A DNA stretch of 58,830 nucleotides. It comes from a virus. Lineage: Duplodnaviria; Caudoviricetes. The notes under the pieces are model-generated. The model worked only from the letters and a program-made list of their open reading frames with translations, did no database searches and was not told where the DNA came from. Positions 1,342-54,269 of the stretch are shown here, piece by piece (within the stretch, counting starts at the first letter, position 1; every line of letters starts with the position of its first letter). The position numbers and the translations under genes were made by a program. Location of the stretch: positions 1 to 58,830 of IMG/VR virus record IMGVR_UViG_3300021344_000002; one strand, given 5' to 3'.

Positions 1342-1357
1342 TTCTAGTTCTCAAAGA

Positions 1358-12885: not shown

Positions 12886-12890
12886 GTGCC

Positions 12891-14222: not shown

Positions 14223-14236
14223 GGAAGGGTGTTAAT

Positions 14237-14476: not shown

Positions 14477-14480
14477 TCAT

Positions 14481-14593
14481 GTGAGCGTGGCGGAAGAGTA
14501 GACGCTAGGATAGGCTATCACGGGATATGCCCTTTGGGTAGATAGACATCCGAGACCATCCATCATGCGTGGTGCAAATCCACGCCGCTCACC
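14481..14593 (+). ncRNA. tRNA-like RNA with expanded anticodon region
   Basis: Acceptor GTGAGCG/CGCTCAC; D-arm GCG-GAAGAGTAGA-CGC; T-arm GCGTGG-TGCAAAT-CCACGC; ~60-nt internal domain, no canonical anticodon loop. Confidence 0.6.
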
Positions 14594-14631
14594 TATTTTA
14601 TTGATGACGTAAAGAAAGGAGGCACATAACA

Positions 14632-17532
14632 ATGCGTATGCCGAGATGGCTTGATTGGCTGCTCTATGGTGGCTCTACGCAGCTTGTCGCTGTGCCTCCT
14701 GTGCAGGAGATTGCAGTACTCAAACAGGCAGAGGAGGCGCGAGGACGCTCATCGTTGATCTTCGATAGCCACATCATGACAGAGGCTGCGTCATCGAAGA
14801 ATCCGCAAGCAGTGTCGTTGGCCTGGGATGAAGGCCGCGCATTCGGCTACAACGTCGCACCGCAAAACTGGATGGGGATGACGCCACGGGAGCGCAAAGA
14901 AACGCTGCTCTCCATCTTCCTCGCCAATCCGTGGGCATCGAATTGTATAGACACCATCGCCCTCTACATTACCTCTGGGGGATACACCATTGAGCCTCGC
15001 GTAGACAAACCCGATGAACGCCAACGCGATGATATCGAGGCATTCCTGCGTCGGATCAATGAGGATTGGGATTTTGATCAGTATGTCTATGACCAGCTCA
15101 CCGACGAAGACATCTTCGGTGAGTGCTTCACAGAATTTACGATGAAGCAGGGGAAGCCCTACCAACTCTTTCCTATCGATTGCTTAACGATGGACACGGA
15201 GCATGACAAATATGGCCGTGTCACGCGGTACAAGCAGCAATTGACTTCAACCAGCGTGGTCAATGTGCTGGACCCGAAAACCATTGTCAGATGGTGGAAT
15301 CCCCATAAACGCGCTAAGGTTGATCCATTCTCGCCGTTAGAGGGTATCCAGGACGCGATCCTCCTCGACAAAAAAATGGTCAATTGGACGACAACCTTCT
15401 TCCAAAAAGGGGCAAAGTTTCCCTTTAGCGTTGAGGGGATCAGCGATCAAGACGAAGCTGATCGCTTTCTGACCTGGTTCAAAGCCAACTATACCGGTGA
15501 AAAGAATGCACAGACGCCGTTTGTGGCGTGGGGAGGCGCGACGCTCAAACCGATGGGTAAAGGCAGTATTGATATCGACTTTGACAAAGGGCTAGATCGA
15601 CAACAATCTATCGTCCTCGCTAACTTCCACGTGCCTCCATCTATCGCCTGTATTTCCGAGACGGGCAATAGACTTACCGATATGAGCGATAGCCAGCGCA
15701 AGATCTTGCAGTACATCGCATGTGATCCGCGCCGCCGCCGCTTTTTCGAGAAGTTTAATTATCGGCTGATTCACCCCTTCTTTGGTGAAGACTACTATGT
15801 TTCGACACGCTACGCAGACCTCCGCTCAGAAACAGATCTTGCAAAGGTTGCTGATATGCAGGTGCGCAATGGGACACGGCTTATTGATGAAGTGCGCCAG
15901 GAAGAAGGCAAAGACGCCTATCCTGATGGTATTGGTCAGGTGCCGGTGATTGTCGTGACCCGCGAAGTAATTCCGGTGCCTAGATTGAAGGATCTCGAAA
16001 ATGAGCAGAAGCAAACGGCGCAAGTAACCCTCGACCAGGCCAAAGCCAATGCTGACCTGGCACAGACCAAAGCGAAGCAGGCCAAAGAGAACCCGGAAGC
16101 CGCGTTGTCGCAAAAAGGACAACAAAGCGATACATCAAATGCGACGCCAGCAAAGAAGGCAAAGCAAGATGACGGTGAAGGAGAGGGGTCACAAGAGAGC
16201 GCATCAGATCGTCCTGCCGTCGTGCAACAACATACTGGCATGATGGTCGCCTTCACCCTTGATCCAAAGACATCACAGCAGCTCACTATCCCTGGCGGTG
16301 AACCACCAGAAGACATGCATATCACCCTGGCCTATCTGGGAGATACGACCGATTTCATGGGGAATATTGACCATTTAGTGGGAACTATTGACCTCTTTGC
16401 GAGAACAATGCAGCCATTGAGTGGCCGTGTCTCTGGCATCGGGCGCTTCATCACTGACGGGCAGGATGTGACGCCTGTGTATGCGAGCGTGGATATGGAA
16501 GGGCTTCAATCGTTTCACGACGAGCTACTCGATGTGCTCACGTCAATGGGCTATGAACCTGCTTCAACGTTTACCTATAATCCACATATCACACTAGCCT
16601 ACATCGATAGCGATGCGCCCATGCCAGTTGAGGATATCTCGAATGTTCCCTTGCATTTCGATACCCTTTGTCTCGCTGTCGGGGATACGCGGCATTTCTT
16701 CAAATTAGGCGGTGACTCATTGCCACCGACAAAGGAGAATCATGAAGAACAAGAGACGCACCAGGGTCAGGGCAACGAACCGCTATATCCGACACAAGAA
16801 TCTCTCGGCCGAGACAGCGTTACCGGTGAAAGTACAGCCGATCAAGGCAAAGCAGAGCTAACATCCTGGATAACATCGCTGTTCTCGACGATGAAAGAGC
16901 GTGGTGCATCGCTATCGCCTACGACGGCTACGGCTGCCAGTGCCTACACCTTCAGTGACCAGGAGCAGGCAGAGCTAGCACAAAAGCTGGCAGAGGTCAA
17001 CGTAGCAGCACAGCATTTCGCCTACGAGCGCGATATGGTCGCTGTTGGGTTGGCCCAGAGTCCTACTGAGGAAGGGTTGTTCTCGAAAGTTGGCGATGTC
17101 CTCTCATGGGGCCGTGAGCAGGTAGCGTCGATCACTTCAACGATGCAAGAAATGCTCTCGAATTTCCTGAGTGGGTTGACCGCTGATGCGAAGGTGGCTG
17201 AGCAGGTCGGCGGCTGGATTGATCGCTACAGCGCCTACAAATCGCCGCAGATCGCCAATGTGGCATGGGGAACTGGTGCCAACGATGGTAGTATGACAGC
17301 GATAGAGGATATCATAGATGCAGCGACAGATCCGAATAAGCCTGCGACAATCTCAACTGATCAGGTCAGAATCAAGGTTGTGCCGAGCTATAGTAGCTCT
17401 GATGCCTGTGCAGACTATGCGGGTCATGACTACGGTATTAATGAATATTTGCAGTTGGGCGTGTCGTGGCCTGCACATCCTTCATGTAGGCACAGTATCG
17501 AAGTGGTCAGGAAAGATGATGGTGAGTCATGA
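14632..17532 (+). CDS. Portal protein fused to a 2H phosphoesterase and a MuF-like C-terminal domain
   Basis: HK97-like portal (FGECF.E, FSPLE, FFQKGA, FHVPPS, IDEVR..EG); two HITLAY motifs (~16318, ~16585); C-terminal C..(x)..PAHPSCRH. Confidence 0.85.
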   Translation: MRMPRWLDWLLYGGSTQLVAVPPVQEIAVLKQAEEARGRSSLIFDSHIMTEAASSKNPQAVSLAWDEGRAFGYNVAPQNWMGMTPRERKETLLSIFLANPWASNCIDTIALYITSGGYTIEPRVDKPDERQRDDIEAFLRRINEDWDFDQYVYDQLTDEDIFGECFTEFTMKQGKPYQLFPIDCLTMDTEHDKYGRVTRYKQQLTSTSVVNVLDPKTIVRWWNPHKRAKVDPFSPLEGIQDAILLDKKMVNWTTTFFQKGAKFPFSVEGISDQDEADRFLTWFKANYTGEKNAQTPFVAWGGATLKPMGKGSIDIDFDKGLDRQQSIVLANFHVPPSIACISETGNRLTDMSDSQRKILQYIACDPRRRRFFEKFNYRLIHPFFGEDYYVSTRYADLRSETDLAKVADMQVRNGTRLIDEVRQEEGKDAYPDGIGQVPVIVVTREVIPVPRLKDLENEQKQTAQVTLDQAKANADLAQTKAKQAKENPEAALSQKGQQSDTSNATPAKKAKQDDGEGEGSQESASDRPAVVQQHTGMMVAFTLDPKTSQQLTIPGGEPPEDMHITLAYLGDTTDFMGNIDHLVGTIDLFARTMQPLSGRVSGIGRFITDGQDVTPVYASVDMEGLQSFHDELLDVLTSMGYEPASTFTYNPHITLAYIDSDAPMPVEDISNVPLHFDTLCLAVGDTRHFFKLGGDSLPPTKENHEEQETHQGQGNEPLYPTQESLGRDSVTGESTADQGKAELTSWITSLFSTMKERGASLSPTTATAASAYTFSDQEQAELAQKLAEVNVAAQHFAYERDMVAVGLAQSPTEEGLFSKVGDVLSWGREQVASITSTMQEMLSNFLSGLTADAKVAEQVGGWIDRYSAYKSPQIANVAWGTGANDGSMTAIEDIIDAATDPNKPATISTDQVRIKVVPSYSSSDACADYAGHDYGINEYLQLGVSWPAHPSCRHSIEVVRKDDGES

Positions 17533-28091: not shown

Positions 28092-29480
28092 ATGGCTGAT
28101 TCTGACCAGACAATAACCGCGAAGTTTATCGCTGATACCAGCGGCTTTACCAAAGGTGCCGATGAAGTCGTTGCCAGTAGCAAGGCTATCGAGGCTTCCA
28201 CTGCTACTATCTCGTCCAGTACCGGCGCTGCAGCGGGTGGCCTCACTGCAATGGGCAGCGCTTCATCGAAAAGCGCTCAGGATGCTGATATGGCAGTTGC
28301 CTCCTTTCTTGGCCTGTCTAAGTCTTCGGAAAGCACCGGGGAAAGTCTGAAGTCATCTGCAAAGTCAAGTGAAGATGCGGGCGGGGGATTCAATCTGCTG
28401 AGTGTGAATGGCATGATGGCGGTAATGATGTTCGCGCAGATGGTTCAGATGGTCGGCCAAGCGCTCGGAGCGCTCGCGAAGGCAACCGATGCTGCCAATG
28501 CAACCGCTATGGCCTTCACCTACCTCACTGGTAGCGCGACAAAGGCGCAACAGGAACTGCAAGCACTACAAAATACCGCTGCAGCCAAAGACTTTGGTGC
28601 ACAGGCTGTTGATAATGTCGCACAGCGTATGTTGATGCTCGGTAAGGATGCTGATACCACCAATAAGGAAATCGGGCGCGTCGCCGACGCTATAGCGGCA
28701 ATGGGTGGCAGTGCAAGTCAGATCGAGCCAGTCATTGAGAGCCTGCATAAGGTTCAGAGTGAATCCGTCGTCACGAAGGACGATATCGACAATATCGCCA
28801 AGGAAGGTGTCCCCGCCTGGCAGATGATTGCTGATGCAATGACCACTGCCGAAGGAAAAACTGTTTCAGTAGCAGAGGCGCAAAAGCGGGTGGTAGCAGG
28901 CGCATTATCGGGCAAGCAGGCGTACCAGGACATGATGGAGGGCATGATTCAGTATACCGGGGCAGCAGAAACGCAATCACAGTCGCTAGGGTCGGAATGG
29001 CAACGTCTCGGCGAGCACGCAGCCAATGCCTTCAAGCCTATCGCTGATTGGTTGGCGAAGGATTTAGAGGCCATCAATGAGTTGATAGAGGGCACTAGTA
29101 AACTAAGCGATGCGCTGAAGGCTGTCGCGGCTGCTATGAGTGGCATGGGTGGCATCACGATGAGCGGATTCGCATCGGGCGTCATTGACAATCCGGTGGG
29201 CCAGCTCGCGACGGTTGGTGAGAATGGCCCGGAAACGATGTTCATTCCACAGCATGCTAGCATTTTCCCCAACGGTATGAATGCCATGAGTGCCCTGTCA
29301 GGAGGTGGGTCAACTATGCCATCTCTGACCTCTGTAATGGGCAGCAGTGGCGGCGGTAGCGGTGGAGATCAACCTATCACCATCATTGCGCAGCTCCATG
29401 TCGATGGCCGTCAGATGGCTGCAGTGACCATTCCATTTATCGCTCCAATGACACGTGGTCTAACAGGGGGTCGCAGATAG
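28092..29480 (+). CDS. Tape measure protein (short, 462 aa)
   Basis: ADTSGF, AFTYLTGSA..A, GVPAWQMIA, FASG..VGENGPE, VDGRQMA. Confidence 0.9.
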   Translation: MADSDQTITAKFIADTSGFTKGADEVVASSKAIEASTATISSSTGAAAGGLTAMGSASSKSAQDADMAVASFLGLSKSSESTGESLKSSAKSSEDAGGGFNLLSVNGMMAVMMFAQMVQMVGQALGALAKATDAANATAMAFTYLTGSATKAQQELQALQNTAAAKDFGAQAVDNVAQRMLMLGKDADTTNKEIGRVADAIAAMGGSASQIEPVIESLHKVQSESVVTKDDIDNIAKEGVPAWQMIADAMTTAEGKTVSVAEAQKRVVAGALSGKQAYQDMMEGMIQYTGAAETQSQSLGSEWQRLGEHAANAFKPIADWLAKDLEAINELIEGTSKLSDALKAVAAAMSGMGGITMSGFASGVIDNPVGQLATVGENGPETMFIPQHASIFPNGMNAMSALSGGGSTMPSLTSVMGSSGGGSGGDQPITIIAQLHVDGRQMAAVTIPFIAPMTRGLTGGRR

Positions 29481-33720: not shown

Positions 33721-35634
33721 ATGCCATATGCTGTACGGCCCTTTGGCCCTGTTGCTATCATGAGTAGTGGTGGCTTTGCGCTCTTTGCGAATGGCACTGG
33801 CACGGCAAGCTTTGATCACTTTTGCGTGAAGCAATTTCCAGACCCTGCCCTGAGCCTCGCGCCTGTCCTTCCCAGGCTTGGCAGTTCCTCTGTCTCCTAC
33901 AATGCCGTGATACCAGCGAAGACCACAGCCGTGGTCAAGACTGGTACTGACGGCGTGAATTGGACAACTGCGACCAGCGGGCAACCTCTACCAGGATTCA
34001 ATAGCCAACCAGCACCGACCATCGACGTGTTTACCGCGAATACATCAGCCAACTACACTAACACCAACAAGAGCGGCGGCAGTGCAGCCACAGCGACCTA
34101 TGACACCGCCAATAAGCGCATCACGCTCGCAGGTGGCTCTGGTGGCCTCTATCTCTACACGGCCATTTCAGCGACAGGCATTGATGTGATTTGCGACATG
34201 GATAGGAGCGATGCAGGCGGGTTGGTGTGGCGCATGGTGGATTCATCGAATTATTATGAGCTTGGTTGCTACGATGATAGCGCTAGTGGCGGGTTCACGA
34301 ATCAACTGCGACTCTATAAAGTGCTGGCCGGGACTCGCTCGCTGCTAGGTTCTGCATCGATCATCGCCTGGCCTCGTTCAACCGTTGGCGCATCGCCCTA
34401 CAAGAGAATCCGCGTGACGATGTTAGGGAGCGTGATCACAGTGTACTTTGATGGCGCGGTCATGCAGACCTATACTGATGGGTCTCCGCTGGCCGCTGGA
34501 AAATGTGGGTTCAGAAATGATGGTGGGACATCAAGGTATTATCAACTGCGCATTCAGCAGCAAGGTGATTATGTTTCTGGTACCCCTGCCGGGGATGTGG
34601 TGACAGCGGATTTCGTGTACACACAGGTCACCCTCACGACCACTGATCCCAGTGTCACGCCGCAACTTCTCGACTTGACCACGAGCGCAAGAAGCCCACA
34701 GATCGCTACCGGGGCACTGATTCCACAACTCCATGATCCAACGAAGCCATTTGCGCTTGGCTATGACAAGGAGATGACGAGCCTTGCTACGCTCAGCGGT
34801 GACACGTGGTATCACGTTGGATATGACAACGCATTGACGTTTGCTGAGCGCTTTGCTGCGCCAGCGCCGTTCTGCCTCTACTCATCGGATTTCCTCTACA
34901 GGCCAGCGACACAAGGTGCAGCGACTGGCGGTGTACAGCCAACGAGCAGCGCTGATACCTATAGGAATCAAGAGATCGTTACGAACACCGTCGGTATCAC
35001 TGGCACAATACCAGAGGAGAAAGTTGCCGACGGGATTGCGACCTCATGGAGCATGCAGTATCCGCTCTATTCAGCGCCAAAGATCATGGTTGCAGGAGTT
35101 GCAAAGACGGTCGGACTTCAGGGTATCGACGTTGGCAAAGATTTTTACTGGCAGGTGAACTCTGTTTCCATCGGACAAGATAGCGGCGCTGCAAAGATTC
35201 CATCAGGTTACATCATTTCTTTCTCGTATGTCGGACAGTTCCCGGACCAGGTGATCCGCAACAACCTCGCAGAGCAGGCTGCACGCGCCGCCATCGAGGG
35301 TGGCACTGGTATTGTCGTGTCCATTGATGACGGGCAAGGAATGCTGTCTAGTAATGCCATTGTCTATGCTGATGGATTGTTGGCGAGGAACAGCAACAAC
35401 GATACGGTGGAGCTGGTGGCAACAACGTCGCGCCCGGATGCCTACAAGCTTACCGTCGGTATGGTGGTGCCTGTTTTTGTGCCAGAACTGAATCTGAATA
35501 ATAGGCAGTTGCTCATTATGAAATTGACCAGGAGCGGGTATCAGAGGGCAGATGGGACTGTGCAGTATGAATACACGATTGATGCGACGGATGGCAGCAA
35601 TCTCCAGAATTGGGCTGCTGCCATCGGTTTATAG
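33721..35634 (+). CDS. Tail tip/hub protein, C-terminal part
   Basis: Starts with SSGGF..FDHF, completing the domain cut at 32447; LATLSG..WYHVGYDNALTF, YRNQ, L.VG..V.V..PEL hub-like motifs. Confidence 0.7.
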   Translation: MPYAVRPFGPVAIMSSGGFALFANGTGTASFDHFCVKQFPDPALSLAPVLPRLGSSSVSYNAVIPAKTTAVVKTGTDGVNWTTATSGQPLPGFNSQPAPTIDVFTANTSANYTNTNKSGGSAATATYDTANKRITLAGGSGGLYLYTAISATGIDVICDMDRSDAGGLVWRMVDSSNYYELGCYDDSASGGFTNQLRLYKVLAGTRSLLGSASIIAWPRSTVGASPYKRIRVTMLGSVITVYFDGAVMQTYTDGSPLAAGKCGFRNDGGTSRYYQLRIQQQGDYVSGTPAGDVVTADFVYTQVTLTTTDPSVTPQLLDLTTSARSPQIATGALIPQLHDPTKPFALGYDKEMTSLATLSGDTWYHVGYDNALTFAERFAAPAPFCLYSSDFLYRPATQGAATGGVQPTSSADTYRNQEIVTNTVGITGTIPEEKVADGIATSWSMQYPLYSAPKIMVAGVAKTVGLQGIDVGKDFYWQVNSVSIGQDSGAAKIPSGYIISFSYVGQFPDQVIRNNLAEQAARAAIEGGTGIVVSIDDGQGMLSSNAIVYADGLLARNSNNDTVELVATTSRPDAYKLTVGMVVPVFVPELNLNNRQLLIMKLTRSGYQRADGTVQYEYTIDATDGSNLQNWAAAIGL

Positions 35635-40898: not shown

Positions 40899-41720
40899 AT
40901 GGCTGAATATTCTAATGCAGTGAATTATTTCGTTGACTCATCGCGCGTCTTTATCAATCAAAACACCCACAGCGCCATAGTGTTACATGGTACAGGTGGC
41001 AGTGCAACGCAAACAGCGTTGCAACTCGGCGACTACTTTCGCAGTACTGTATTGATGACCTCTGTCCATTATGGGATAGACCGGACTGGCGTCGTTTGCC
41101 AGTACGTCTCTGAGGCGGACGGAGCTGGTGGTAATTGCTGTCTCGAAGTAGGCCATGATCCATTCTGGGATCAGTTCAACGGCGACAATCTCAATATCCA
41201 TACGTTGAGCATCGAGCACGTCAACGACCTCACCAATAGCCTGGCGCTCACTAATTCACAGAAAGCTGCGTCATTCAAGCTCATTGCCCATCTGAGCCAG
41301 AAGTACACTATCCCCTTTTCGCACATCAAAAGTCATGCATCGCTTATGCCGCAATCAAGAGCGCTCTGTCCAGGCCCGGCGTTTCCCTGGACTGACCTGG
41401 CTAATTTTATACAGAATGGAGGAAACGTTGTGACACCGCCGAACAAATGGCAGATCGCCGATGCTGAGGCAGAGTGGAAATGCACGGCGAATCTCTTTCC
41501 CGGCGACGTAGCACCAGTATACACAACGGGGATCGCGAAAGCATGGACGTTGCGTATCTACCAGGGCCAGCGCATCGGGCCACCGATCACCGGTGAGTAC
41601 AGCAGTACCGACTGGGGCGGCAATGCGCTCAAAGTCCAACAATTCACGAATGCTCGCTGCGAGTGGCGTGTCGATGGCAGCTCCTGCCGCTTCTTCGGAC
41701 CGGACGGCGAGATAGTGTAA
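40899..41720 (+). CDS. N-acetylmuramoyl-L-alanine amidase endolysin (Amidase_2-like)
   Basis: IVLHGT, SVHYGIDR.G...QYV, N..TLSIEH, H...CPG. Confidence 0.85.
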   Translation: MAEYSNAVNYFVDSSRVFINQNTHSAIVLHGTGGSATQTALQLGDYFRSTVLMTSVHYGIDRTGVVCQYVSEADGAGGNCCLEVGHDPFWDQFNGDNLNIHTLSIEHVNDLTNSLALTNSQKAASFKLIAHLSQKYTIPFSHIKSHASLMPQSRALCPGPAFPWTDLANFIQNGGNVVTPPNKWQIADAEAEWKCTANLFPGDVAPVYTTGIAKAWTLRIYQGQRIGPPITGEYSSTDWGGNALKVQQFTNARCEWRVDGSSCRFFGPDGEIV

Positions 41721-44748: not shown

Positions 44749-45024
44749 TCAGTCCACCTGGAACACTGCAATGCCCACTACGATGCTCTCACGACGTGCA
44801 ATGATGCTGATGAGTTCGCAGTCTTGCACGGCGAGGACATCGCTCTCTTTGTCTCCAGCGATGGTCGTTACCTGTATGCCGGCAAGGAGGCTATCATAGA
44901 TGATGGTGAGCGTTGTAGTAGGTTCGTTGGAACCTTTGATGGATAGGGTAGCGTGGTAGTCATTGTCTGCGTAGTAGAAGATGCTGAGTAGCACCGGGTT
45001 GACGAGACTTGCTGTATTCAACAT
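44749..45024 (-). CDS. Hypothetical protein (possibly frameshifted, continuing to ~44592)
   Basis: Start-associated motif 45027-45041 before MLNTAS. Confidence 0.55.
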   Translation of the reverse strand: MLNTASLVNPVLLSIFYYADNDYHATLSIKGSNEPTTTLTIIYDSLLAGIQVTTIAGDKESDVLAVQDCELISIIARRESIVVGIAVFQVD

Positions 45025-45041
45025 AATGGCTGGTACCCCTT

Positions 45042-45827
45042 CTATGTCCAACAGAATCCGCTGTTGCATTTATCTTGCTCAAACATCGATAATGTTGTAT
45101 CTTTCTTGCGCGGGACAAGCACAACTTGACTGAGAGGTTGGCAACTCTTATGGAGACGGACACCGTGGGACTGGTAAATCTGCTCATCCAGCGCGACAGA
45201 CTCGGCCCATTCCCCCGGTTCTTGCTGTACTTCTAGCCACTCATCGTCCGATTGATGAGGGCACATCTTACAGCGTGATTTGATGGAGGGCGGCATTCCA
45301 TACCGCTCTACGAGTTCGGCGCATTCCGCACGCTTCATTTTTACGTCGTAGCAGAGCGGCCAGTAGTTGACGCACCATTCCTCGCCAGAATGCTTCAATC
45401 GCCCCAGCTCGTCCAGGCTCATTCCGATCCACATCACAACCCCATCTTTATTGGCCTTTGCCCCTCCAATGTAGCGACGGATGACCCGCGTCTTCCATTC
45501 GGTACTGCAAAACGTCGGGAGCTTCGCATGTTCACCCTTGCTATTGACTTTTGTCGCGTCATAGGCAGGGATCAATAGCTCACCTTTATGACTGAGCAGA
45601 TCAACAGTTGAGAGGCTGTGCGGCGCTACCTCGATGGTCAGTGAAACCTCTGCGAGCAGAGGTTTCACGTACTGCTCTGTGTACTCCCAGGTCTTCTTAA
45701 ACTCATAGCCAGTGTCGGCTATCACAATGCGATCTGGTCTGGGTAAGCGCCCCTGTCGGACAAGTATTGCCATCGCTATGGATTGTGTGCCGCCTCCGTA
45801 GCTCCATACAATCGCGTTATTATTCAT
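45042..45827 (-). CDS. PAPS-reductase-like adenine-nucleotide alpha-hydrolase protein
   Basis: WSYGGGTQS, ADTG.E, CSTEWK, IGMS.DE, KSRCKMCP, C.SGFC; motif 45827-45841 at start. Confidence 0.8.
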   Translation of the reverse strand: MNNNAIVWSYGGGTQSIAMAILVRQGRLPRPDRIVIADTGYEFKKTWEYTEQYVKPLLAEVSLTIEVAPHSLSTVDLLSHKGELLIPAYDATKVNSKGEHAKLPTFCSTEWKTRVIRRYIGGAKANKDGVVMWIGMSLDELGRLKHSGEEWCVNYWPLCYDVKMKRAECAELVERYGMPPSIKSRCKMCPHQSDDEWLEVQQEPGEWAESVALDEQIYQSHGVRLHKSCQPLSQVVLVPRKKDTTLSMFEQDKCNSGFCWT

Positions 45828-45906
45828 GGCTGGTACCCCTTCTTGATAGTCATTGATGAACAGCGACCAACCCCGGATCGTGTGGAGCTGGCCGCGTGGG
45901 ACGATG

Positions 45907-46443
45907 TTAAGCACTCTTTACCTGTTGCTCATAGCCGGTGATGAATGTACTGACCTTTGCCAGATCAGCGGCATTCGCAATCTGCTCAGCACCTGCTGCT
46001 TTGAGGAGCGCTACCCATTCGTCGGCGTCATGGGCAAGGCCAACAGCGAGGGCGCGTTTCTTGAGCTTCTTGACCTCGACATCCAGGATTGGATCACGCC
46101 TCTGCTCATCGTGAGCGTGAGTGATATCATCGGCGCTGGCAATGCTCTCAGTCGCACCGTAGCCCGCGAATCCGAGCGCCCGACCAAGTGCACTGGTCTG
46201 AGCACACTCCATCGGGTTGGTGCCATCCGGCGTATTGGCATGGGCATCAAATTTGATCTCAGCATCTCCCGCGTAGCGTTTGCCCTTGACTTCAATGGTG
46301 ATTGAGAAGAACCAGCGACCAGCGACCTCATAGCGCTCCTGGGTGGTCATGGAATAGCCCTCATCGGCATGGCAGAGGCGGATGCGTTCAGCGACATCAA
46401 CGTATTCCTTGCCGCGAATGTTGACGGTGCGTACCTGTGTCAT
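45907..46443 (-). CDS. Rad52/Sak-like single-strand annealing protein
   Basis: IRGKEYVDVAERI, ECAQTSALGRALGFAGYG..SIASAD. Confidence 0.65.
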   Translation of the reverse strand: MTQVRTVNIRGKEYVDVAERIRLCHADEGYSMTTQERYEVAGRWFFSITIEVKGKRYAGDAEIKFDAHANTPDGTNPMECAQTSALGRALGFAGYGATESIASADDITHAHDEQRRDPILDVEVKKLKKRALAVGLAHDADEWVALLKAAGAEQIANAADLAKVSTFITGYEQQVKSA

Positions 46444-46577
46444 AATGTGATCTCCCCTACAAAAGTATAAACGATAGGGCGTCTTGAGAACACGACGCCC
46501 GTTCAACAAACTACAACTCTCGATACACAATCATCACACTGAAGACCATGCCGACGACAACTCATAGTCCTCTGTGA

Positions 46578-46784
46578 TCATTGGTGTGTCCCTCGTTTCG
46601 CTGCTTTCAATCGCCAATACTGAGCCATCATCACTTGCCGGTGGCTCTCACAAATACCATGGCTACCTTCGCCTGCTGCAATGCCCTGCTCAGCAAGACA
46701 CCATGCGCAGAGCAGAGCCTCGACGATGACGCGGCAGGTCACCGATGGAACTGTGACCTGCGGAGTGTGTTTCTCGTAGATCAT
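46578..46784 (-). CDS. Small Zn-finger protein (CAWC..SHGIC..H)
   Basis: Motif; start-associated 15-mer at 46785-46799. Confidence 0.65.
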   Translation of the reverse strand: MIYEKHTPQVTVPSVTCRVIVEALLCAWCLAEQGIAAGEGSHGICESHRQVMMAQYWRLKAAKRGTHQ

Positions 46785-46806
46785 TGGCTGGTACCCCTTC
46801 GCTGAT

Positions 46807-46992
46807 TCAGATCAGCTCTACTTCACTGAGACTCTTCCAAAGTGTTCGACCCGTATCAAACTGTATTTTCAGTTTGGTGGTGATCTTCGTACGCAGTCCA
46901 GTTTGCGAGATCTCCCTGATCTCCAGAATGGTTCCAAAGCCCATGCTGGTAAAGTGACATCGCTGCTGTACTTGTGCTGTTCTTGTTGCCAT
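46807..46992 (-). CDS. Small beta-barrel-like hypothetical protein
   Basis: 15-mer at 46993-47007 before MATRTA. Confidence 0.6.
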   Translation of the reverse strand: MATRTAQVQQRCHFTSMGFGTILEIREISQTGLRTKITTKLKIQFDTGRTLWKSLSEVELI

Positions 46993-47053
46993 TGGCTGGT
47001 ACCCCTTCACCGGGATTGATTCCTGGCTCCCGGCTGGCCCTCGATAACTACAA

Positions 47054-47608
47054 CTACGCGCTACGTTGTCCTAGCAACCACTCACTGCTCACCTTGACCG
47101 TCTTCTTCAGTGCTGCTGCAGGCACGGGCAACGCGAACCGATTGCCGACCAGCGACGAAGCCTTGATCTCCTCTGCTACCCAGTCACGATGCTTAGCCTC
47201 ATCGTCCAGCTCGTCTAACCACGCCTTGCCGTCAACTGCGGGTCCACACTGGATGACCACTTTACCGGCCTTGCTGTTGATCATAGCGATCAATGCATCG
47301 ATGCTCAGCACTGGCGCTGCAACGGCAACCGACGACTCGTTGGCGATGGTAACGCGGATCTCTTCAACTTCCAGGAAGAACGTGATATGACAGCAATTCT
47401 TTTTCCAGCGGCTGTACCCCATGCAAGTGCAAGTGTGGTGCTGTTCCCCGGAGATCCACAGTGTCACGCTGTAATTACTGATGCGCTCCACCTCGCCGTT
47501 GACCGAGACCTCGGAAGTGAAGTCGATCTCGATGCGACTGCCATCGTGCCAGGACCTCCGGGTCTTCACGTACATCTCGCGGGTCTCGTTGTTTTTCTTT
47601 GCTGCCAT
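47054..47608 (-). CDS. SWIM zinc-finger protein
   Basis: Y.VT..CTC..(x)..CCHI. Confidence 0.7.
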   Translation of the reverse strand: MAAKKNNETREMYVKTRRSWHDGSRIEIDFTSEVSVNGEVERISNYSVTLWISGEQHHTCTCMGYSRWKKNCCHITFFLEVEEIRVTIANESSVAVAAPVLSIDALIAMINSKAGKVVIQCGPAVDGKAWLDELDDEAKHRDWVAEEIKASSLVGNRFALPVPAAALKKTVKVSSEWLLGQRSA

Positions 47609-47658
47609 TGCCGTCGTCTCCTGTGCTGTTGTTGTTACTCTCCGTAACTTCTATATGT

Positions 47659-47687
47659 ATTATAGTTGTTACGCTGAGTAATGTCAA
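47659..47687 (-). promoter_or_regulatory. Consensus promoter TTGACA-17-TATAAT with operator CAGCGTAACAACT in the spacer
   Basis: Exact consensus hexamers; the same 13-mer recurs in the divergent promoter array. Confidence 0.85.
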
Positions 47688-47768
47688 GGGGTTTATGGAG
47701 GAATTTAGCGTGTTCATCGATATTAATATAATCTTTATAGAGCTTCGTTTTGACCCATTAATTCTGAT

Positions 47769-47880
47769 CGACAGCGTAACAACTTGCAATTCCAGAATTG
47801 CCATGCTAAGATGAAGCGACAGCGTAACAACTTGCAATTCCAGAATTGCCATGCTAAGATGAAGCGACAGCGTAACAACT
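47769..47880 (+). repeat. 48-bp tandem repeat (2.33 copies): duplicated promoter TTGCAA-17-TAAGAT flanked by three CGACAGCGTAACAACT operators
   Basis: 16-mers at 47769, 47817 and 47865. Confidence 0.9.
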
Positions 47881-47895
47881 AGAAAGGAACAATGT

Positions 47896-48198
47896 ATGGG
47901 ACACGAGGAAAAGCCTGAAAGCCCTGACGATCTTCTGACGGCGGGGGAAGCGGCAAAATACCTTGCAAAGCGATGGGGGCGCAAGGATTATACTACGGTT
48001 GCATTTAGACAATTGCGTCATAGGTGGAACCTAAAACCAGCAATGCTGTTCCAGGAGAACTTGTCACTTTGGCGACGCGGTGACCTGGACGGCATTCCTG
48101 AACCTAGTCGCAGTAATCCGCGGCCAAGTCGAAGAAAAAAGGTAGAAAAGCCTCAAAAAGATGTTGACAACGAAGAATGCCCTATGGTATTCTGTTAG
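47896..48198 (+). CDS. HTH (MerR/excisionase-like) regulator
   Basis: LLTAGEAAKYLA..LWRRGDLD; SD AAAGGA. Confidence 0.7.
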   Translation: MGHEEKPESPDDLLTAGEAAKYLAKRWGRKDYTTVAFRQLRHRWNLKPAMLFQENLSLWRRGDLDGIPEPSRSNPRPSRRKKVEKPQKDVDNEECPMVFC

Positions 48199-48531
48199 TA
48201 TCCTGTTACGCTGAGTAACTACAACGATGGCGTAACAACTAAGAGCGACAGCACCACGCGATCTACTCTCGAAGCAAGCCCAGCAATACAAAGGAGCGCA
48301 ATGTACACAAAGAAGAGCAGCAACTTATCATCGACTTATAAGTCTTATCAAGTTGAGAACAACAGATTCTCAGGAGATGTTGCTGCTTGCCAAATGGTGC
48401 ATTGTGGATGTAAAATGACAGAGTTGTTTTACAGAACTTCGATGTTTGGGGAACATGTGGGGAACGCGATGCAACTTGGTATGTTACACAGGAAAACGGG
48501 GAGTATTGTCTGTGATGCTCACAGTGCTCTG

Positions 48532-49896
48532 TCATCGTCGCCTATTGATGTGCGAACGGTGGACATCTCTAGTATACAACATCGGCTTCGGCGGGTCAGT
48601 ACCGGGCGTTGCTTTTGCAACGAGGTCCGCGTCTGCTCGAAGAAACATATAGATCATAGTGGATATTTGACCAATAATACGGGACAAAGGGCGCATGCGA
48701 CCCTTGCGGCGTTTGAGCTTGGCATCGAAGGGACATTGACGGATCACGAGACGCTGGTAGATCCCACGCCACTCAGTATTGTCCTTGACGGCGCGCATGC
48801 CAACGAGAAACATGGTTTGTCGCAGCATTCTGTTGCCTCCTTTGTTGAGGGCTATGCCGTTCTGGGATTTGCCGCTCTGGTCCTCGATGGGGTTCCAGCC
48901 GGTGTAGGCTTTGAGCTTGCCAGCGCTGGCGAAGTTCTCGATGCAGCCGATGCTGGCAATGATCTCGCCGGCAGCAAGAGTGCCAACAAAGCTGCCGAGA
49001 GAGAGCAGAATCTGTCCTTCGCGTGTCGCAGAGACAACAGCCGCAATCTTTGCTTTGATGACCTCCTCGTTGTCCTGCAGGACACGGAGTTGCTTGATCA
49101 GCAATCTTTGCTGCAGCACCAGTGCATCGACGCGGCCAGGGTCAGTAATGCCGATGCTTCCCTTTGCCAGCTCCTGCAGATGTTCCAATGCTGCATTGCC
49201 CGGCCTGGTGGATTTGGGAAGACGACAGTCCTTGAGGTCATCAAGGGACACGGCGACAACATCAACGGGCGTTGGATAGCGTTCACGAACAATGCGCGCC
49301 GTGAGACCGTTGGGGTCTTTGAAAATCAATGCAAACTCAGGAAACAACAGATCACTGATGGCGGTGAGTTGATTACAGGTTCGCACGATCTGCTTTGTCA
49401 GGTCATAGCGGTATTGTGTCAGCCCTCGGAGGCTCTGAGCTACCTCCGAGATCGGCATGACCTTGCGTACTTCTTGCTCAGTGTCATCAGGGAGGGCACC
49501 CAGTTCAATCTGGCGGTACACCATGTTGGCGAGGCCCTGGGCGTCTCGTCGATCATTCTTTTGTTTGCGCGGCCTCTTCTGGACGTGCACGGTGTAACAC
49601 TGGATGCCTTGCTCCTGCAGATATTGCAGGAGCGGAAGGTGATAGTGTCCGGTGCGCTCCATGAGCACGCGCCACTGGGAGAGCGGGGCATAGCGCTGCA
49701 GCTCGCCCGCCAGGCGCTCAAAGTCAAGGCGCGAATTTGTAAAGGGAAGCGTTGGGCAAGCGCTGTAATGCCCAACGCTGCGCTGCAGGTAGGTGGAATA
49801 GAATGCGGCGACGTGGGCATCTTTGCCAATGTCAATGCCTGCGTAGTAGTACTCTGGGTGCAGTGGAATCGGGGATTGTTGGGGTACTGTGACCAT
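48532..49896 (-). CDS. IS110-family recombinase/transposase
   Basis: RuvC-like DEDD: GIDIGK, MERTGHY, KNDRRDA; Tnp domain F....KLKAYTG..P...QSG, GGNRMLR. Confidence 0.95.
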   Translation of the reverse strand: MVTVPQQSPIPLHPEYYYAGIDIGKDAHVAAFYSTYLQRSVGHYSACPTLPFTNSRLDFERLAGELQRYAPLSQWRVLMERTGHYHLPLLQYLQEQGIQCYTVHVQKRPRKQKNDRRDAQGLANMVYRQIELGALPDDTEQEVRKVMPISEVAQSLRGLTQYRYDLTKQIVRTCNQLTAISDLLFPEFALIFKDPNGLTARIVRERYPTPVDVVAVSLDDLKDCRLPKSTRPGNAALEHLQELAKGSIGITDPGRVDALVLQQRLLIKQLRVLQDNEEVIKAKIAAVVSATREGQILLSLGSFVGTLAAGEIIASIGCIENFASAGKLKAYTGWNPIEDQSGKSQNGIALNKGGNRMLRQTMFLVGMRAVKDNTEWRGIYQRLVIRQCPFDAKLKRRKGRMRPLSRIIGQISTMIYMFLRADADLVAKATPGTDPPKPMLYTRDVHRSHINRRR

Positions 49897-49934
49897 CGCA
49901 TTCCTTGCTTCTTCTACATCATCATTAATCAAAT

Positions 49935-50115
49935 AGGAAGAGCAAGGGAAGTCATGGCGATCCATGCCCAAACACAGACCAGGGCTTGCACCCAGATGCT
50001 CACAAGGGCTTTACAGGTCGCCGTCCCAATCACTATTAAGGCATTGCTGCCAATAACATATCAGGGATCAATGATGACCCTGGCATGGATAGCTGGTCCA
50101 TACCGCGCTCTTCCC
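49935..50115 (-). ncRNA. Putative IS110 bridge RNA
   Basis: Nested stems GGAAGAGC/GCTCTTCC, ATCCATGCC/GGCATGGAT, CAGGG/CCCTG with large internal loops, upstream of the recombinase. Confidence 0.55.
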
Positions 50116-50223
50116 ATTCAAGGATACTCAGCAACGGTCTTATTATCAAGCTATTGTTGATTCGTGAACACATTGTAATTATCTGCTTGTTATGCAAGCA
50201 AACAGCGATAGAAGGTACTAACT

Positions 50224-50613
50224 ATGATCAATAACGGGGCGCTACGTCTCATGCCAGATATTGTCTCCCTCTCAGCATGCTCGACGTTGGATGAAGTTCA
50301 ACAGGCATCGCTGATCGCGCTACGTGTGAAGGCGCTCAGCGATCCGAGCCGACTGCGGATACTGCGCGTTCTGGCGGCAGCGGCGGAGCAGACGGTAAGC
50401 GTTGGACGGCTCACTGAATTGTTGAATACAGTGGAGCAGAGCATGATATCTCGCCATATCCGACTGCTCGTCCATGCAGGATTCTTGGAGCTTACCGTCT
50501 CTCGAATAAAGGGCAAGGTGGAGCACTTCTACCACGTCAAGCTCTTCGCAATCCGGGCGGCCCTGGGTGAGCTACTCAGCTACATCGGGATCGTGCAGGC
50601 GGAAATTGGCTGA
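50224..50613 (+). CDS. ArsR/SmtB-family transcriptional regulator
   Basis: KALSDPSRLRIL, VGRL, QS.ISRH...L..AG. Confidence 0.85.
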   Translation: MINNGALRLMPDIVSLSACSTLDEVQQASLIALRVKALSDPSRLRILRVLAAAAEQTVSVGRLTELLNTVEQSMISRHIRLLVHAGFLELTVSRIKGKVEHFYHVKLFAIRAALGELLSYIGIVQAEIG

Positions 50614-50919
50614 AGACGCACAAAAGCGACCCACCGCATGCTCCTTAATCTACCAAAGTCTGGAGCTGCGATGAGCCGTTTTGCTGATACAGTGTGCTGC
50701 ACAGTATAGTACATCACACTGTGAATTATTTCCAGTATTTCATAGTATCAGGGAGGAAAGTACTGTGAGGCAAAAAGAGGGCGTCACCACGCTGGCAGCA
50801 GCACAGGAGACTAATCTGGCAAATACCAGTGACGACGCCGAGAACACCGATAGCACACAGGCAACACTGACGCCCGAAGGGGTACCAGCCATGATACTAG
50901 CCCAACACGCGATCTAGTT

Positions 50920-51150
50920 ACGAGTGATCCTACAAGCCACAGGGGATCCGGGGGATCCTGAATCCTACACTGGACGCGCAGGACCATTATGCCATGTTCG
51001 CATATGAGCATAGCACAACACCCCCGTGTATGTCCAGTGAAAACGATGAGAAATTGATGAGTGCTGGTACGCTCATCAAGCAGCCTGTGAGGCTGCAACA
51101 ACTCTGCCACGTTGCTACGCTTTGTGGAGCTTCGTGGGGCTACGAAATTA
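50920..51150 (+). ncRNA. Structured non-coding leader upstream of the replication genes
   Basis: Stems CACTGGAC/GTCCAGTG, TTGATGAGTG/CGCTCATCAA (51054-51079), GCAGCCT/AGGCTGC, TTCGTG/TACGAA. Confidence 0.45.
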
Positions 51151-51196
51151 TTCTTGGACTTATTTAGATTATTTTGATCTATCAGGGGGATAGGCC

Positions 51197-51574
51197 ATGA
51201 GCAAAAAGAAACGTTCAGCCATCAGGTTTCACATATCAACCAGCAAACCTGCGAAATTTTCTACTGAAAGCGCACTACGTCATGTAGCACAACAGTTTAT
51301 GGGTGTTGAGAAGAGTTTGACCCCTCTCATTATTGCTCAGCACATGCCTCCAGGGGCGGCCATTATTTTGATTGCCTGCTACACCCATGCAACGGTAGCG
51401 GGTGCGCAGAAGACTCACAATATGAGTGAAGATGACATCACTGGCTCAGCAAATTCACTGCTCACACTCTGGAAACATGGACTGTTTACCCCGAGCAAAC
51501 AATTTCCTTACACACTAAAGCAAGTCTTCACTGCTATAAATGACGATGAAGATGGAAGCGAGGACGAGCAATGA
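51197..51574 (+). CDS. Hypothetical protein
   Basis: SD AGGGGG; coupled to rep. Confidence 0.6.
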   Translation: MSKKKRSAIRFHISTSKPAKFSTESALRHVAQQFMGVEKSLTPLIIAQHMPPGAAIILIACYTHATVAGAQKTHNMSEDDITGSANSLLTLWKHGLFTPSKQFPYTLKQVFTAINDDEDGSEDEQ

Positions 51575-52863
51575 GTCAATCGACTGAGATGGTCGTGATT
51601 ATCCGACCGAGCTTTAAAAAGTTTTGCGACGCTGATGCGTGTCGGGCAGCTCTCTTCAATCAATTGCTCTATCGGATTGCTGGAAAAGCAAAGGGCCAGG
51701 ACCAGGACAAAGTAAAACGAGGTGAAATCTATTGGTATGGGTCAGCAGAGCGAATCTGTGATAAAGAACTGGACAACTCATGGTCAATCAACAAAGTCAT
51801 AAAAGAGACCAAGGCAATCATTGCCGCTGGCATCGTTGGGCAGAGACACAACCCGGTGAAGAAGTGGGACAGGACAATGCATTATTTCATTGGAGATGAA
51901 CAGGGTAAAATCATCAGAGAGCAGTGTGAAAAGCACCACATTTACCCTGCTCATCTGGGCCTTCCTCCGGCTGTTCTCGATCTACTGCATTTGGTAAATG
52001 CATTTACCAAATGTGGTGATTCCAATTGCCAGATATGTGAAATGCATTTACCAAATGCAGTAGATCGATTTACCAAATGTGGTGATGCAATACCCAAGGA
52101 ATCTTACAAGGAAACTACAAAGGAAACATACCAAGAAAGAAAGAGCAGCGATCCGTTGCCAGCAAAAGAGATCTCCCTCCCTCCTTCAATTTCCACAAAT
52201 ATTCTTTCTCTTGAAGAACAGGAAAAACTAGACTGGTTTCGTGAACTAGAGAACTCACCAGTAGATATAGCACGGGCGAAGGAACGCTGTGCTGAACTTG
52301 ATGAGATCAAAACCCGCGAGCAGTTTCGAGATCTCCATGTTATTGCTAAGCAGATGGTGCAAGGGAAAAAGAATCCAAGACCCAACCTGGGTAATATGGT
52401 CGGTGCTCTGCCTATCTGGAGAGATGAGCAGAAGCTAGCAGAGGATCAATGGTGGAATCAGTCCAAACAGGGTGAGCAGGCAGAGCCATCGCCGATTCCA
52501 GAACCGGAGCTGCCGGTGGTCGTCAACGAGGACACAGAGCACGACGAGGTGCGAACTGCTGAACCGGCGACGGACGAGATACCAGCGGTGCCAGCTCCAC
52601 AGAGACGGCGCAGCAAGGGGATGAATACTGGAGCTGCTGAATCACTGGCCGGGCAGGTTGCCGAAGAGTACCCCGGTCTCATCGCTGAATTTGATGAGAT
52701 CAGCCCTGGTTGCTACATGCTTACTATCTGGTATGGAGACGGCGAGGATCAATGGTTTGATCTTGATCTTGTCGCATGGTGGCATCGGACACCGGAGATC
52801 GAGCGCCTTCTTGAGCAGGCGGTGTGCTACGCAGATGCAGTGCAGGTATCAATTGCAATGTAA
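51571..52863 (+). CDS. Replication initiator-like protein (N-terminal wHTH, internal iterons)
   Basis: AALFNQLLY..YWY.S, NP...WDRT.HY; low-complexity KE.YKET.KET after the iterons, a lambda O-like layout. Confidence 0.7.
   Translation: MSQSTEMVVIIRPSFKKFCDADACRAALFNQLLYRIAGKAKGQDQDKVKRGEIYWYGSAERICDKELDNSWSINKVIKETKAIIAAGIVGQRHNPVKKWDRTMHYFIGDEQGKIIREQCEKHHIYPAHLGLPPAVLDLLHLVNAFTKCGDSNCQICEMHLPNAVDRFTKCGDAIPKESYKETTKETYQERKSSDPLPAKEISLPPSISTNILSLEEQEKLDWFRELENSPVDIARAKERCAELDEIKTREQFRDLHVIAKQMVQGKKNPRPNLGNMVGALPIWRDEQKLAEDQWWNQSKQGEQAEPSPIPEPELPVVVNEDTEHDEVRTAEPATDEIPAVPAPQRRRSKGMNTGAAESLAGQVAEEYPGLIAEFDEISPGCYMLTIWYGDGEDQWFDLDLVAWWHRTPEIERLLEQAVCYADAVQVSIAM
51977..52086. repeat. Iteron/origin-like repeats ATTTACCAAATG, 4 copies, including a 29-bp perfect inverted repeat
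   Basis: 51977-52005 vs 52040-52068 inverted; 26-bp palindrome 51988-52013. Confidence 0.8.
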
Positions 52864-53253
52864 GGGGGTGATGTGAGAGTGGATGAAGTCATCTATATCA
52901 TCGAAGCGCTGATCATCATTGGCATTGTTGTCTATGAGCTTATCATGGGGCACTTCGCCGGCGAGGAGCCGCTCGATACCGATGTAGTAGTCGCTGACTT
53001 GCAAGAGATGGCAGAGGAGCCGCAAATAAACCGTGAAGGGGGGTGATGCGATGATCTTTGCCATTATCGCTATGGTTCTTGGTACCATTGCCTATTTTGT
53101 GATGGGCCACATCGCAGACAAGGCCAGCGACGAGTAAACAATGTAATGCGCCTGGCGAGTCTCAGTAGCCAGGCGACACGCGGGAAAGTTTGGAGAAACC
53201 CGCGTGCGAATCTATTGTAACAGTATTTGTAAAGTTAAGTTTGGAGAAAAACA

Positions 53254-53592
53254 ATGGCAGATATCGTCCCCTATGGTAATCAGGGGTTTGCCCTGGAGCA
53301 ATGGCCGCAAAGTGACCTGGCGATCAGTCAGAAACCTGGATGGAATGGTGTTCACTTTTGCTTTGATCCCGATGATCTGTCCTTCCTCAAGGGCAAGGTC
53401 GATGCATGGTTTGCTGGCTGCGGTGAAATCATTTATGTTGCTGACGGCGACTGCGAAAAGCAAGACCTCTCGTTCATGATCCTGGAATGGGAAGATTGTG
53501 AGATTAACCCGCTGTTCCTGGCAATCCTACGAGATGAGGAGAAGATTGATAGTTTCAGCGTCTACTTCAGAGCTGCGGAGGACTATCAATAA
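53254..53592 (+). CDS. Acidic hypothetical protein, first gene of the transfer-like operon
   Basis: SD GGAG; upstream AAGTTTGGAGAAA twice. Confidence 0.65.
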   Translation: MADIVPYGNQGFALEQWPQSDLAISQKPGWNGVHFCFDPDDLSFLKGKVDAWFAGCGEIIYVADGDCEKQDLSFMILEWEDCEINPLFLAILRDEEKIDSFSVYFRAAEDYQ

Positions 53593-53594
53593 TA

Positions 53595-54269
53595 ATGGCA
53601 CGATATGGAAACACCAGGCAGACGGGTCAGAGACAACAAGGCCCAACAGTTGACGCCTCCAGCCATGTCAATGGTGGTATTGCGCTTACCCCGCTGATGC
53701 TCCTCTCCGGCATCATCGTCTTTGGAACCGCGTTCTTCATTATTAGCCAGGTACAAATCACTTCGACAGAGCAAACCGTTTTTGATCTGATGGCAAGCGG
53801 GGTCAGAGCTACAACCGATACAGGTGCACAAATTGGACAGTTTATCAGTCAGAAAGACTTAGACCACGATCACCTGATCGCTAATACGATTGGTTGGAGT
53901 GTACAGGTTGCGCTGTTCCTGCTTTCCATCCCGGTTGCACAGGCGCTTATGCTCGTCCACCGGATACATAATTCTGAGAGTTCTGCGAGTCTTTCCGCAA
54001 CTGCACAAAAATACGCCGATGGGCAAACCTTTTGTGTGCGTGCCCTGGTTGGCGGTGATGTCCTCACTGACTTCTACTTCGTGGTACGGGGTCATGTTAT
54101 TGTGACATGGCCTTCGCTTTGGCCCTCTGTGACCGGTTTTGACTTTGGTGTGATCCTGGTAGGGATCATCTACCCTGTAGCAATTTGTTTCATTACCGTG
54201 TTTTGCGGTCGCCTGTTCCTAGTATGCGTGGAAGTGTTTGTCATTAAACATGTTCTCCACAGGGCCTAG
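53595..54269 (+). CDS. Multi-TM membrane protein (transfer accessory-like)
   Basis: 3-4 TM; directly upstream of the FtsK-like ATPase. Confidence 0.7.
   Translation: MARYGNTRQTGQRQQGPTVDASSHVNGGIALTPLMLLSGIIVFGTAFFIISQVQITSTEQTVFDLMASGVRATTDTGAQIGQFISQKDLDHDHLIANTIGWSVQVALFLLSIPVAQALMLVHRIHNSESSASLSATAQKYADGQTFCVRALVGGDVLTDFYFVVRGHVIVTWPSLWPSVTGFDFGVILVGIIYPVAICFITVFCGRLFLVCVEVFVIKHVLHRA

Follow-up and report, generated by a model that had tools for sequence, protein, structure and literature searches.

The DNA analysed here, called the window throughout, is a complete virus record of 58,830 bp (IMG/VR record IMGVR_UViG_3300021344_000002) that was assembled from a soil metagenome and represents an uncultured, temperate tailed phage. 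Two of its features are considered in this study. One is a 16-nt word, GAAGGGGTACCAGCCA, that recurs at translation starts and is referred to as the tag. The other is a structured spacer of 279 nt (50918-51196, plus strand) situated between a 50-codon open reading frame (ORF) and a 125-codon frame, ORF125, upstream of a rep-like gene. Part of this spacer is a hairpin, hairpin 1, in whose loop the two features meet: loop plus closing pair (51063-51070; DNA GCTGGTAC, RNA GCUGGUAC) are the exact reverse complement of the tag core GTACCAGC. This match had been pointed out in an earlier sequence-only reading of the window, which saw in it a possible RNA that silences the tag-bearing genes. The complementarity itself was borne out.

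A repeated tag at translation starts

Seven copies of the tag are present in the window, five exact and two with one mismatch, and an ATG adjoins each of them (7/7), starting between the last base of the tag and 3 nt beyond it. The repetition at starts that had been described before is thus genuine. The core GTACCAGC occurs nine times against 1.12 expected, a count reached in none of 100 shuffles, and six of the nine occurrences fall within GAAGGGGTACCAGCCA. Matches to GAAGGGGTACCAGCCA at up to three mismatches number nine against 0.37 expected, again with 0/100 shuffles reaching nine; seven of the nine are true copies. The tag holds a Shine-Dalgarno-like AAGGGG, and the letters that follow, UACCAGCCA, are conserved equally. 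Of the five tag-led starts that were tested, four yield exactly the product of a gene in the calls of public pipelines. Folding upstream of the tag copies is not stronger than at other genes (mean −6.8 versus −8.4 kcal/mol).

Four copies belong to genes of the leftward operon, two precede genes at 1.4 and 4.9 kb, and one stands before a short frame at 50891; the tag is thus found at 1.4, 4.9, 45-47 and 50.9 kb, with no copy within the terminase-to-lysis block (12.3-42.8 kb). The operon copies are exact and lie on the minus strand. They precede the ATG of a PAPS-reductase-like gene of 261 codons (45827-45842), of genes of 68 and 61 codons (46785-46800 and 46993-47008) and of a 91-codon ORF whose start is not in the protein collection (45027-45042); contigs of the sequencing runs X3 and X4 retain this last copy with 2 nt inserted. 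The copies with one mismatch stand before the ATG of a 163-codon gene (1357-1372, plus strand) and of a 78-codon gene (4926-4941, minus strand), the latter reading CCGGCC and able to pair with the hairpin loop through one G.U.

The remaining copy, GAAGGGGTACCAGCCA at 50876-50891 on the plus strand, lies 173 nt before the loop of hairpin 1, close to the distance of about 180 nt given by the sequence-only reading. Its ATG at 50891 does open an eight-codon frame, MILAQHAI-stop. The claim that the copy drives this short frame alone needs revision, because both lie in frame within a probable 50-codon gene (50765-50917, plus strand), of which MILAQHAI is probably the in-frame tail. This gene starts with GTG, has GGGAGG 8 nt upstream, and scores 0.336 per codon, compared with a mean of 0.32 for true genes and a 95th percentile of 0.12 for false frames; individual windows score 0.45-0.71. 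Within it, positions 50876-50890 of the tag encode E-G-V-P-A. The same gene holds a copy (50801-50811) of a second repeated ribosome-site word, GCACAGGAGAC, which occurs four times in the window, at 10710, 40772 and 50801 on the plus strand and at 47626 on the minus strand. Two of these copies have an ATG 8-10 nt downstream, and the copy in the 50-codon ORF has no canonical start behind it.

The tag is real, far above chance and a new member of the kind of motif known as start-associated sequences (SAS) in Cluster K mycobacteriophages, with a sequence unrelated to the known SAS. By analogy with SAS, it is best explained as a private, extended translation-initiation signal of seven genes that would act separately from the hairpins.

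The structured spacer and its surroundings

Hairpin 1 (51054-51079, plus strand) reads TTGATGAGTG-CTGGTA-CGCTCATCAA, with a 10-bp stem that includes one G.U pair and a 6-nt loop, CUGGUA. Folded alone it reaches −12.3 kcal/mol (z −4.8), and 0/200 shuffles were as stable, so that the hairpin recognised by the earlier reading is a real one. The minus strand gives −10.5 kcal/mol, the G.U pair favouring the plus strand. Hairpin 2 (51080-51096, plus strand; GCAGCCU-GUG-AGGCUGC) directly adjoins it and contains CCUGUG, the complement of 6 nt in the second ribosome-site word GCACAGGAGAC. Both hairpins together (51050-51102) fold at −25 kcal/mol (z −4.6). The spacer as a whole adopts a multi-branch fold of −97.6 kcal/mol on the plus strand (z −3.06; 1/200 shuffles as good), in which the Shine-Dalgarno sequence of ORF125, GGGGGA (51184-51189), lies within a terminal hairpin loop; the minus strand folds better still (z −4.29). 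The structured spacer, which folds better than its shuffles, is a solid finding.

The spacer had previously been taken as non-coding and as lying upstream of rep. Both statements hold in part. A structured stretch of 279 nt does separate the flanking frames, but three pipelines call a 57-codon gene, ORF57 (50994-51167, plus strand), across both hairpins. The rep-like gene does follow, but ORF125 lies directly downstream of the spacer, between the two. A comparison with known RNA families, which had been recommended as a check, returned no Rfam match in the whole window at the gathering threshold and none at E ≤ 10 over 50550-51250; the spacer element is therefore not a member of C4 or of another described Rfam family. 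The promoter scan listed no plus-strand promoter-like site within 50918-51196, and the terminator scan found no plus-strand intrinsic terminator at 51054-51100, where the hairpins are followed by AACAACUCUGCC. ARAGORN detected no tRNA, tmRNA or tRNA-like element. An attP or packaging site in the spacer was rejected on position, as the integrase is encoded at 9620-10531 and the terminase at 12259-14222.

ORF125 (51197-51574, plus strand) has no family match. The rep-like gene that follows it (51571-52863, plus strand) matches no database family or structure, and its label rests on repeats inside the gene: iterons CATTTGGTAAATGCATTTACCAAATG and copies at 51988-52090, composed of repeats and inverted repeats of CATTTGGTAAATG-type words. 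Three relatives of the rep-like gene carry different repeats at the equivalent gene position (L005 1572-1615; L008 4343-4432; L009 4377-4466). This suggests a replication origin within the rep-like gene, as in lambda O. An origin in the spacer was rejected in favour of these iterons, and with the origin better placed in the gene the spacer need not be one. Upstream of the 50-codon gene, a promoter-like TTGCTG-18 nt-TATAGT (50681-50710, plus strand) was recognised by eye in its hexamers and is not listed by the promoter scan; it is overlapped by a 14-nt inverted repeat, ACAGTGTGCTGCAC/GTACATCACACTGT, within 50681-50722. This site may start a rightward transcript that carries the tag copy and the hairpins. 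The rightward block opens with an ArsR-like gene (50224-50613, plus strand) and continues through small ORFs and the rep-like gene to an FtsK-like ATPase, the plus strand carrying every gene from 50224 to the end of the record.

Searches for relatives met with mixed success. No DNA similarity was found between the window and 50,697 phage records with 50600-52900 and 12891-17532 as queries, and the hairpin pattern gave 0 matches in viral contigs. The exact 16-mer of the tag had four single matches in viral contigs, all unrelated and with no ATG directly behind. ORF125 and the ArsR-like protein had no relatives among viral contigs. The PAPS-reductase-like protein was found at six viral loci; at the two nearest in sequence (69% and 64% identity), the tag is missing and the ribosome sites are of the ordinary type. 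As far as these comparisons reach, the tag is private to this lineage. A distant PAPS-reductase-like relative is encoded on an IMG/VR contig of 99,877 bp (L016), which contains many GCGATCGC-containing words, with at most 10 copies of single 10-mers in 20.7 kb, and a seven-copy tandem array near 14780-14965. We take these words to recall the HIP1 palindrome of cyanobacteria.

Used as a single query, the rep-like protein retrieved no locus. An alignment of its homologues, 33 in number, led to five metagenome loci and one viral locus, and to none in genome contigs. These six loci share no nucleotide similarity with 50200-51600 and contain no homologue of ORF125 or of the ArsR-like protein; their rep genes stand directly after other genes, without such a spacer. 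GGTACC is present in 0 copies in the six loci (L005-L010, 36 kb in total) and in 17 copies in the window, and its absence may represent restriction-site avoidance in the hosts of the relatives. Among sequencing runs, X1 contains all sampled words of the window, and no RNA run is among those listed. Four freshwater DNA runs compared with 45000-54000 yielded contigs with patchy, near-identical pieces. None of the pieces listed spans 51054-51079, the nearest beginning at 51096, and they speak neither for nor against the hairpin.

The leftward operon runs from 47608 to 43250 and is served by a promoter at 47687->47659 that fits the consensus at 12/12 positions. The word AGTTGTTACGC(TG) occurs five times within 47659-48250, three copies lying in exact 48-nt tandem units (47784-47880) and one overlapping the −10 box of this promoter; the copies are probably operator sites of the phage repressor. 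An IS110-family element (about 48318-50134), with its transposase gene at 48532-49971 on the minus strand, separates the leftward operon from the ArsR-like gene. A search of genome contigs with this transposase, aimed at the host, found nothing. Contigs of the freshwater runs contain diverged copies that part from the window at about 48318-48345 and at 50134; the element therefore occurs in other contexts too.

Elsewhere in the window, genes for a tyrosine integrase (9620-10531, minus strand), a large terminase (12891-14222), a portal-containing 966-aa protein (14632-17532), a tape-measure protein (28092-29480), an amidase (40899-41720) and an HTH-TPR regulator (5219-6385) were recognised. In the 966-aa protein, portal matches cover residues ~77-584 and matches to families annotated as RNA ligase and as head maturation protease cover residues ~470-700. 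Downstream of the HTH-TPR regulator, a 173-aa protein (6382-6903) matches Flavoprotein (PF02441), and a 239-aa protein at 117-836 matches Pfam Globin weakly (E 1e-4; 23.2 bits at a cut-off of 22).

The SAS motif of Cluster K mycobacteriophages

SAS of the Cluster K mycobacteriophages has been known since 2011 (Pope et al., PMC3203893), and its function is still termed unknown in the available text of papers from 2024-2025 (PMC11373665, PMC12699233). As far as the original account goes (PMC3203893), the window tag and SAS have much in common. Both are asymmetric, conserved words of 13-16 nt that combine a Shine-Dalgarno-like core with letters unexplained by rRNA pairing, both stand a few nucleotides before mostly ATG starts of non-structural genes and are oriented with the gene, and both are private to a lineage. 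In contrast, the words themselves, GAAGGGGTACCAGCCA and GGGATAGGAGCCC, are unrelated, the window has seven copies compared with 11-19 given for Cluster K, and the conserved upstream inverted repeat of Cluster K (ESAS) is not present at the window tag copies. As the word differs and no phage record matches at the DNA level, the window tag is an analogue of SAS and not a member by homology to GGGATAGGAGCCC.

A single reverse-oriented SAS copy of K1-type phages is mentioned without explanation in the part of the original account that was available (PMC3203893), and our literature search found no paper proposing a role for it. Genes 96 and 97 of phage Anaya are separated by a non-coding gap of 385 nt (L017 31683-32067) that folds with a z of −5.96 and includes this copy, as the 10-nt loop CCUCCUAUCC of a hairpin rich in G+C. 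The loop offers 10 complementary letters, including the anti-Shine-Dalgarno CCUCC, worth −14.6 kcal/mol. The region was found in 133 phage records, nine of which were sampled for comparison, spanning 75-100% identity (L017-L025). Their consensus structure is 95.4% paired, against 36-45% with partners slid. Seven pairs change on both sides. G.U pairs fill 42/284 cells; on the opposite strand they would be mismatched, which favours a plus-strand RNA. The structure comprises two hairpins on the plus strand before the last genes, the second loop being the reverse SAS copy, and this anti-SAS loop is kept in 7/9 sampled phages. Judged from the alignment, the Cluster K gap is a conserved plus-strand RNA structure that displays an anti-SAS loop.

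Late transcription of phage Adephagia is reported to begin in the gap that contains the hairpin, according to the available text of PMC11373665. Amgine and Hammy retain the same SAS consensus, in 18 and 16 forward copies, yet their loop has drifted; in Pixie, 25000-61000 contains 16 copies of SAS, all of them forward. Hence, an anti-SAS loop is not required for a tag system. On these comparisons the Cluster K layout is real and not universal, and its regulatory role is putative.

The window resembles Anaya in that a strong hairpin bears one reverse copy of the tag in its loop, and in that this hairpin belongs to an extended non-coding region and to the strand that is transcribed like the neighbouring genes. 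It differs in that six letters of the loop match instead of ten and in that the Shine-Dalgarno core stays uncovered.

The loop-tag match and its possible roles

Chance was assessed in the roughly 10 kb to which a crude gene call assigned no gene, where one hairpin carries an 8-nt anti-tag in loop plus closing pair. The chance probability of the match is about 0.01-0.04, which is suggestive but post hoc: the match was sought after the fact, in a genome that holds at least three other repeated words and offers other ways of seeing a match. Outside the tag copies, GTACCAGC occurs three times against 1.12 expected. Partial reverse copies of the tag do arise elsewhere, too. A degenerate one at 34574-34589 on the minus strand (13/16 positions, 11 contiguous) lies inside the coding sequence of a gene that, from the tape-measure gene at 28092-29480, would belong to the tail module. 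The plus-strand mRNA of this gene contains CUGGUACCCCU, an 11-nt anti-tag that is longer than the loop of hairpin 1 (−23.3 kcal/mol).

The predicted pairing itself is weak. Six of the eight complementary letters lie in the loop and two form the closing pair. Pairing by the loop letters only is worth −7.0 kcal/mol, and the pairing of the whole 8-mer, −13.3 kcal/mol, is available only with the closing pair opened. Even with hairpin 1 taken as unstructured, the duplex reaches −19.5 kcal/mol and falls short of the 40th-ranked site in the genome at −19.8, so that the loop site is outside the 40 best in an unconstrained ranking. Moreover, the complementarity spans the spacer between the Shine-Dalgarno core and the AUG and covers neither. 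Taken together, the 8-nt match is more likely a coincidence than a working antisense pair.

The reading that we favour, tentatively and at somewhat less than even confidence, is that the spacer is a cis-acting structured leader of the rightward replication-operon mRNA and that the match between loop and tag is coincidental. Transcription would start at the probably operator-covered promoter at 50681-50722 and run on the plus strand through the small upstream gene and the spacer (50918-51196), with ORF125 and then the iteron-bearing rep-like gene downstream on the same mRNA. The hairpins would act in cis, on mRNA stability or processing, or by presenting the ribosome site of ORF125 in a loop. 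We prefer this leader because all genes from 50224 on lie on the plus strand and the spacer folds better than shuffles, and because no boundaries of a small RNA were seen, Rfam gave no match and the pairing is weak.

Several observations weigh against a mere coincidence. Dinucleotide shuffles contained at least one hairpin with an 8-nt anti-tag in 11/400 cases for stems of at least 7 bp and in 1/400 for stems of at least 8 bp; when the natural hairpins were kept and 8-mers drawn uniformly, 0.042 matches were expected for stems of at least 7 bp and 0.008 for stems of at least 10 bp. The match lies 173 nt from a tag copy in what would be the same transcript, all seven copies are able to pair with the loop, one of them through G.U, tag and spacer both appear private to the phage lineage, and the Cluster K phages conserve the same layout with covariation. 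In addition, a cis function of the spacer is something that we infer.

These observations are the strength of the possible but doubtful alternative that the hairpin is an anti-tag riboregulator. A plus-strand RNA containing hairpin 1, whether the operon leader itself or a product processed out of it, would pair with UACCAG(C) of tag-led mRNAs and damp their translation. Its targets in trans would be the leftward early operon with its four copies and two further genes; alternatively, it could act in cis on the tag copy that lies 173 nt upstream. The loop of the strongest local hairpin provides the exact complement, with a chance expectation of 0.008-0.042, the G.U pair of hairpin 1 favours the plus strand, tag and spacer are both lineage-specific, and in the Cluster K analogue the hairpin covaries, the loop is kept in 7/9 phages and the gap is the one from which late transcription of Adephagia is reported, as far as the accessible part of the paper tells (PMC11373665). 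What speaks against it is the loop of only 6 nt and −7.0 kcal/mol, compared with 10 nt and −14.6 kcal/mol in Anaya, the uncovered Shine-Dalgarno core and AUG, the scans without promoter, terminator, Rfam match or tRNA-like processing signal, the overlap of ORF57 with the hairpin, and the degenerate loop of Amgine and Hammy and its absence from Pixie.

That overlap leads to an unlikely alternative, in which the hairpins are part of a real small protein gene, ORF57, and structure and 8-mer are by-products of coding or of features at the mRNA level. The exact 57-aa product is present in the protein collection, as a singleton, the frame is called by three pipelines, and its codon score is 0.10-0.29 per codon in windows over 50920-51060. 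Overall the codon signal is weak and ambiguous: the whole frame scores 0.044 per codon, less than the 0.11 that marks the 5th percentile for chunks of true genes. A weak ribosome site (AGGA, some 10 nt before the start) and a start codon hidden within a long hairpin also count against it. In a search of 1.84 billion representatives, the sole match besides ORF57 itself is a repetitive 469-aa protein with six matching stretches, which was rejected as a relative and leaves no true homologue. An arrangement on the minus strand is still less probable. A countertranscript of the rep-operon leader, ending at hairpin 1 followed by UUUCUCAUCGUUUU, would show the sense tag core in its loop and serve as a decoy. 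The better fold of the minus strand (z −4.29), a U-rich run seen by eye after the hairpin and a place upstream of the rep-like gene that suits plasmid-style copy control agree with it, but the scan lists no promoter-like site that would precede the hairpin on the minus strand, no terminator was accepted at this place, and the G.U pair of hairpin 1 turns into a C.A mismatch on this strand.

We give very little credence to a different minus-strand transcript, which would be the true anti-tag RNA in that it runs over the tag copy (50891-50876) as a perfect 16-nt anti-tag. It would start at 51036->51007 (TGGACA-18-TATGCT) and end where a long hairpin (50780-50839) gives way to CUCUUUUUG. In its favour, TG stands before the second hexamer of the promoter-like site, a hairpin plus U-run is in place, and the transcript would account for a tag copy before just eight codons. 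Against this stand a promoter match of 9/12, of a type found three times with 2.1 expected in shuffles, an unexceptional fold (z −1.36), an anti-tag that is partly in a stem, and a plus-strand frame that looks coding. Finally, the spacer is very improbably a DNA-level element, with protein-binding sites or a secondary replication signal in place of an RNA. Short direct repeats (two copies of GGGGATCC at a distance of 9 nt and two of ATCCTACA) and the good folding of both strands, as expected of DNA inverted repeats, fit such an element, but the iterons lie inside the rep-like gene and not in the spacer, and the rep relatives have no such spacer.

The riboregulator would have consequences beyond this phage. 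With the same doubtful standing, private start tags combined with one mirror-image hairpin loop might form a recurrent, undescribed translational regulon of phages, of which the window is one instance: the loop of a replication-leader RNA would jointly switch down seven genes, early or accessory ones, by pairing with their tag. If so, the reverse SAS copy of Cluster K in its covarying hairpin loop would be explained, one small RNA would control a gene set at the ribosome-binding step, and SAS-type motifs would gain their missing partner. A second, unrelated phage lineage with a SAS-type tag in any case means that the device is not peculiar to mycobacteriophages, and culturable Cluster K phages with a conserved anti-SAS loop provide a direct test system for the general idea. 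If the match is instead coincidental, as under the leader that we prefer, it illustrates how little weight an 8-nt loop match carries when conservation data are lacking.

Among the systems with which the spacer can be compared are the structured leaders of plasmid replication genes. In ColIb-P9 (Inc RNA and the repZ leader) and R1 (CopA and CopT-tap), a structured leader with a short leader ORF lies upstream of the replication gene, and a hairpin loop is complementary to a distant site near a ribosome-binding site. In the window, unlike in these plasmids, the scan shows no antisense promoter, and the complementary site is upstream of the hairpin, at the end of another reading frame and not at the rep ribosome site.

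An analogy had been drawn with the antisense RNAs C4 of P1 and CI of P4, and the geometry does resemble theirs, with a target within the same transcript. C4-type RNA uses two loop sequences. As in C4 (P1, P7) and P4 CI, a phage RNA from the operon of its own target would direct a short loop against repeated sites at the ribosome-binding region; the role of C4 in P1 and P7 is taken here from the available part of PMC8198154. In contrast to C4 and CI, the spacer has one 8-nt match, neither an evident antirepressor operon nor a processing signal was found around it, and its candidate targets are seven dispersed genes.

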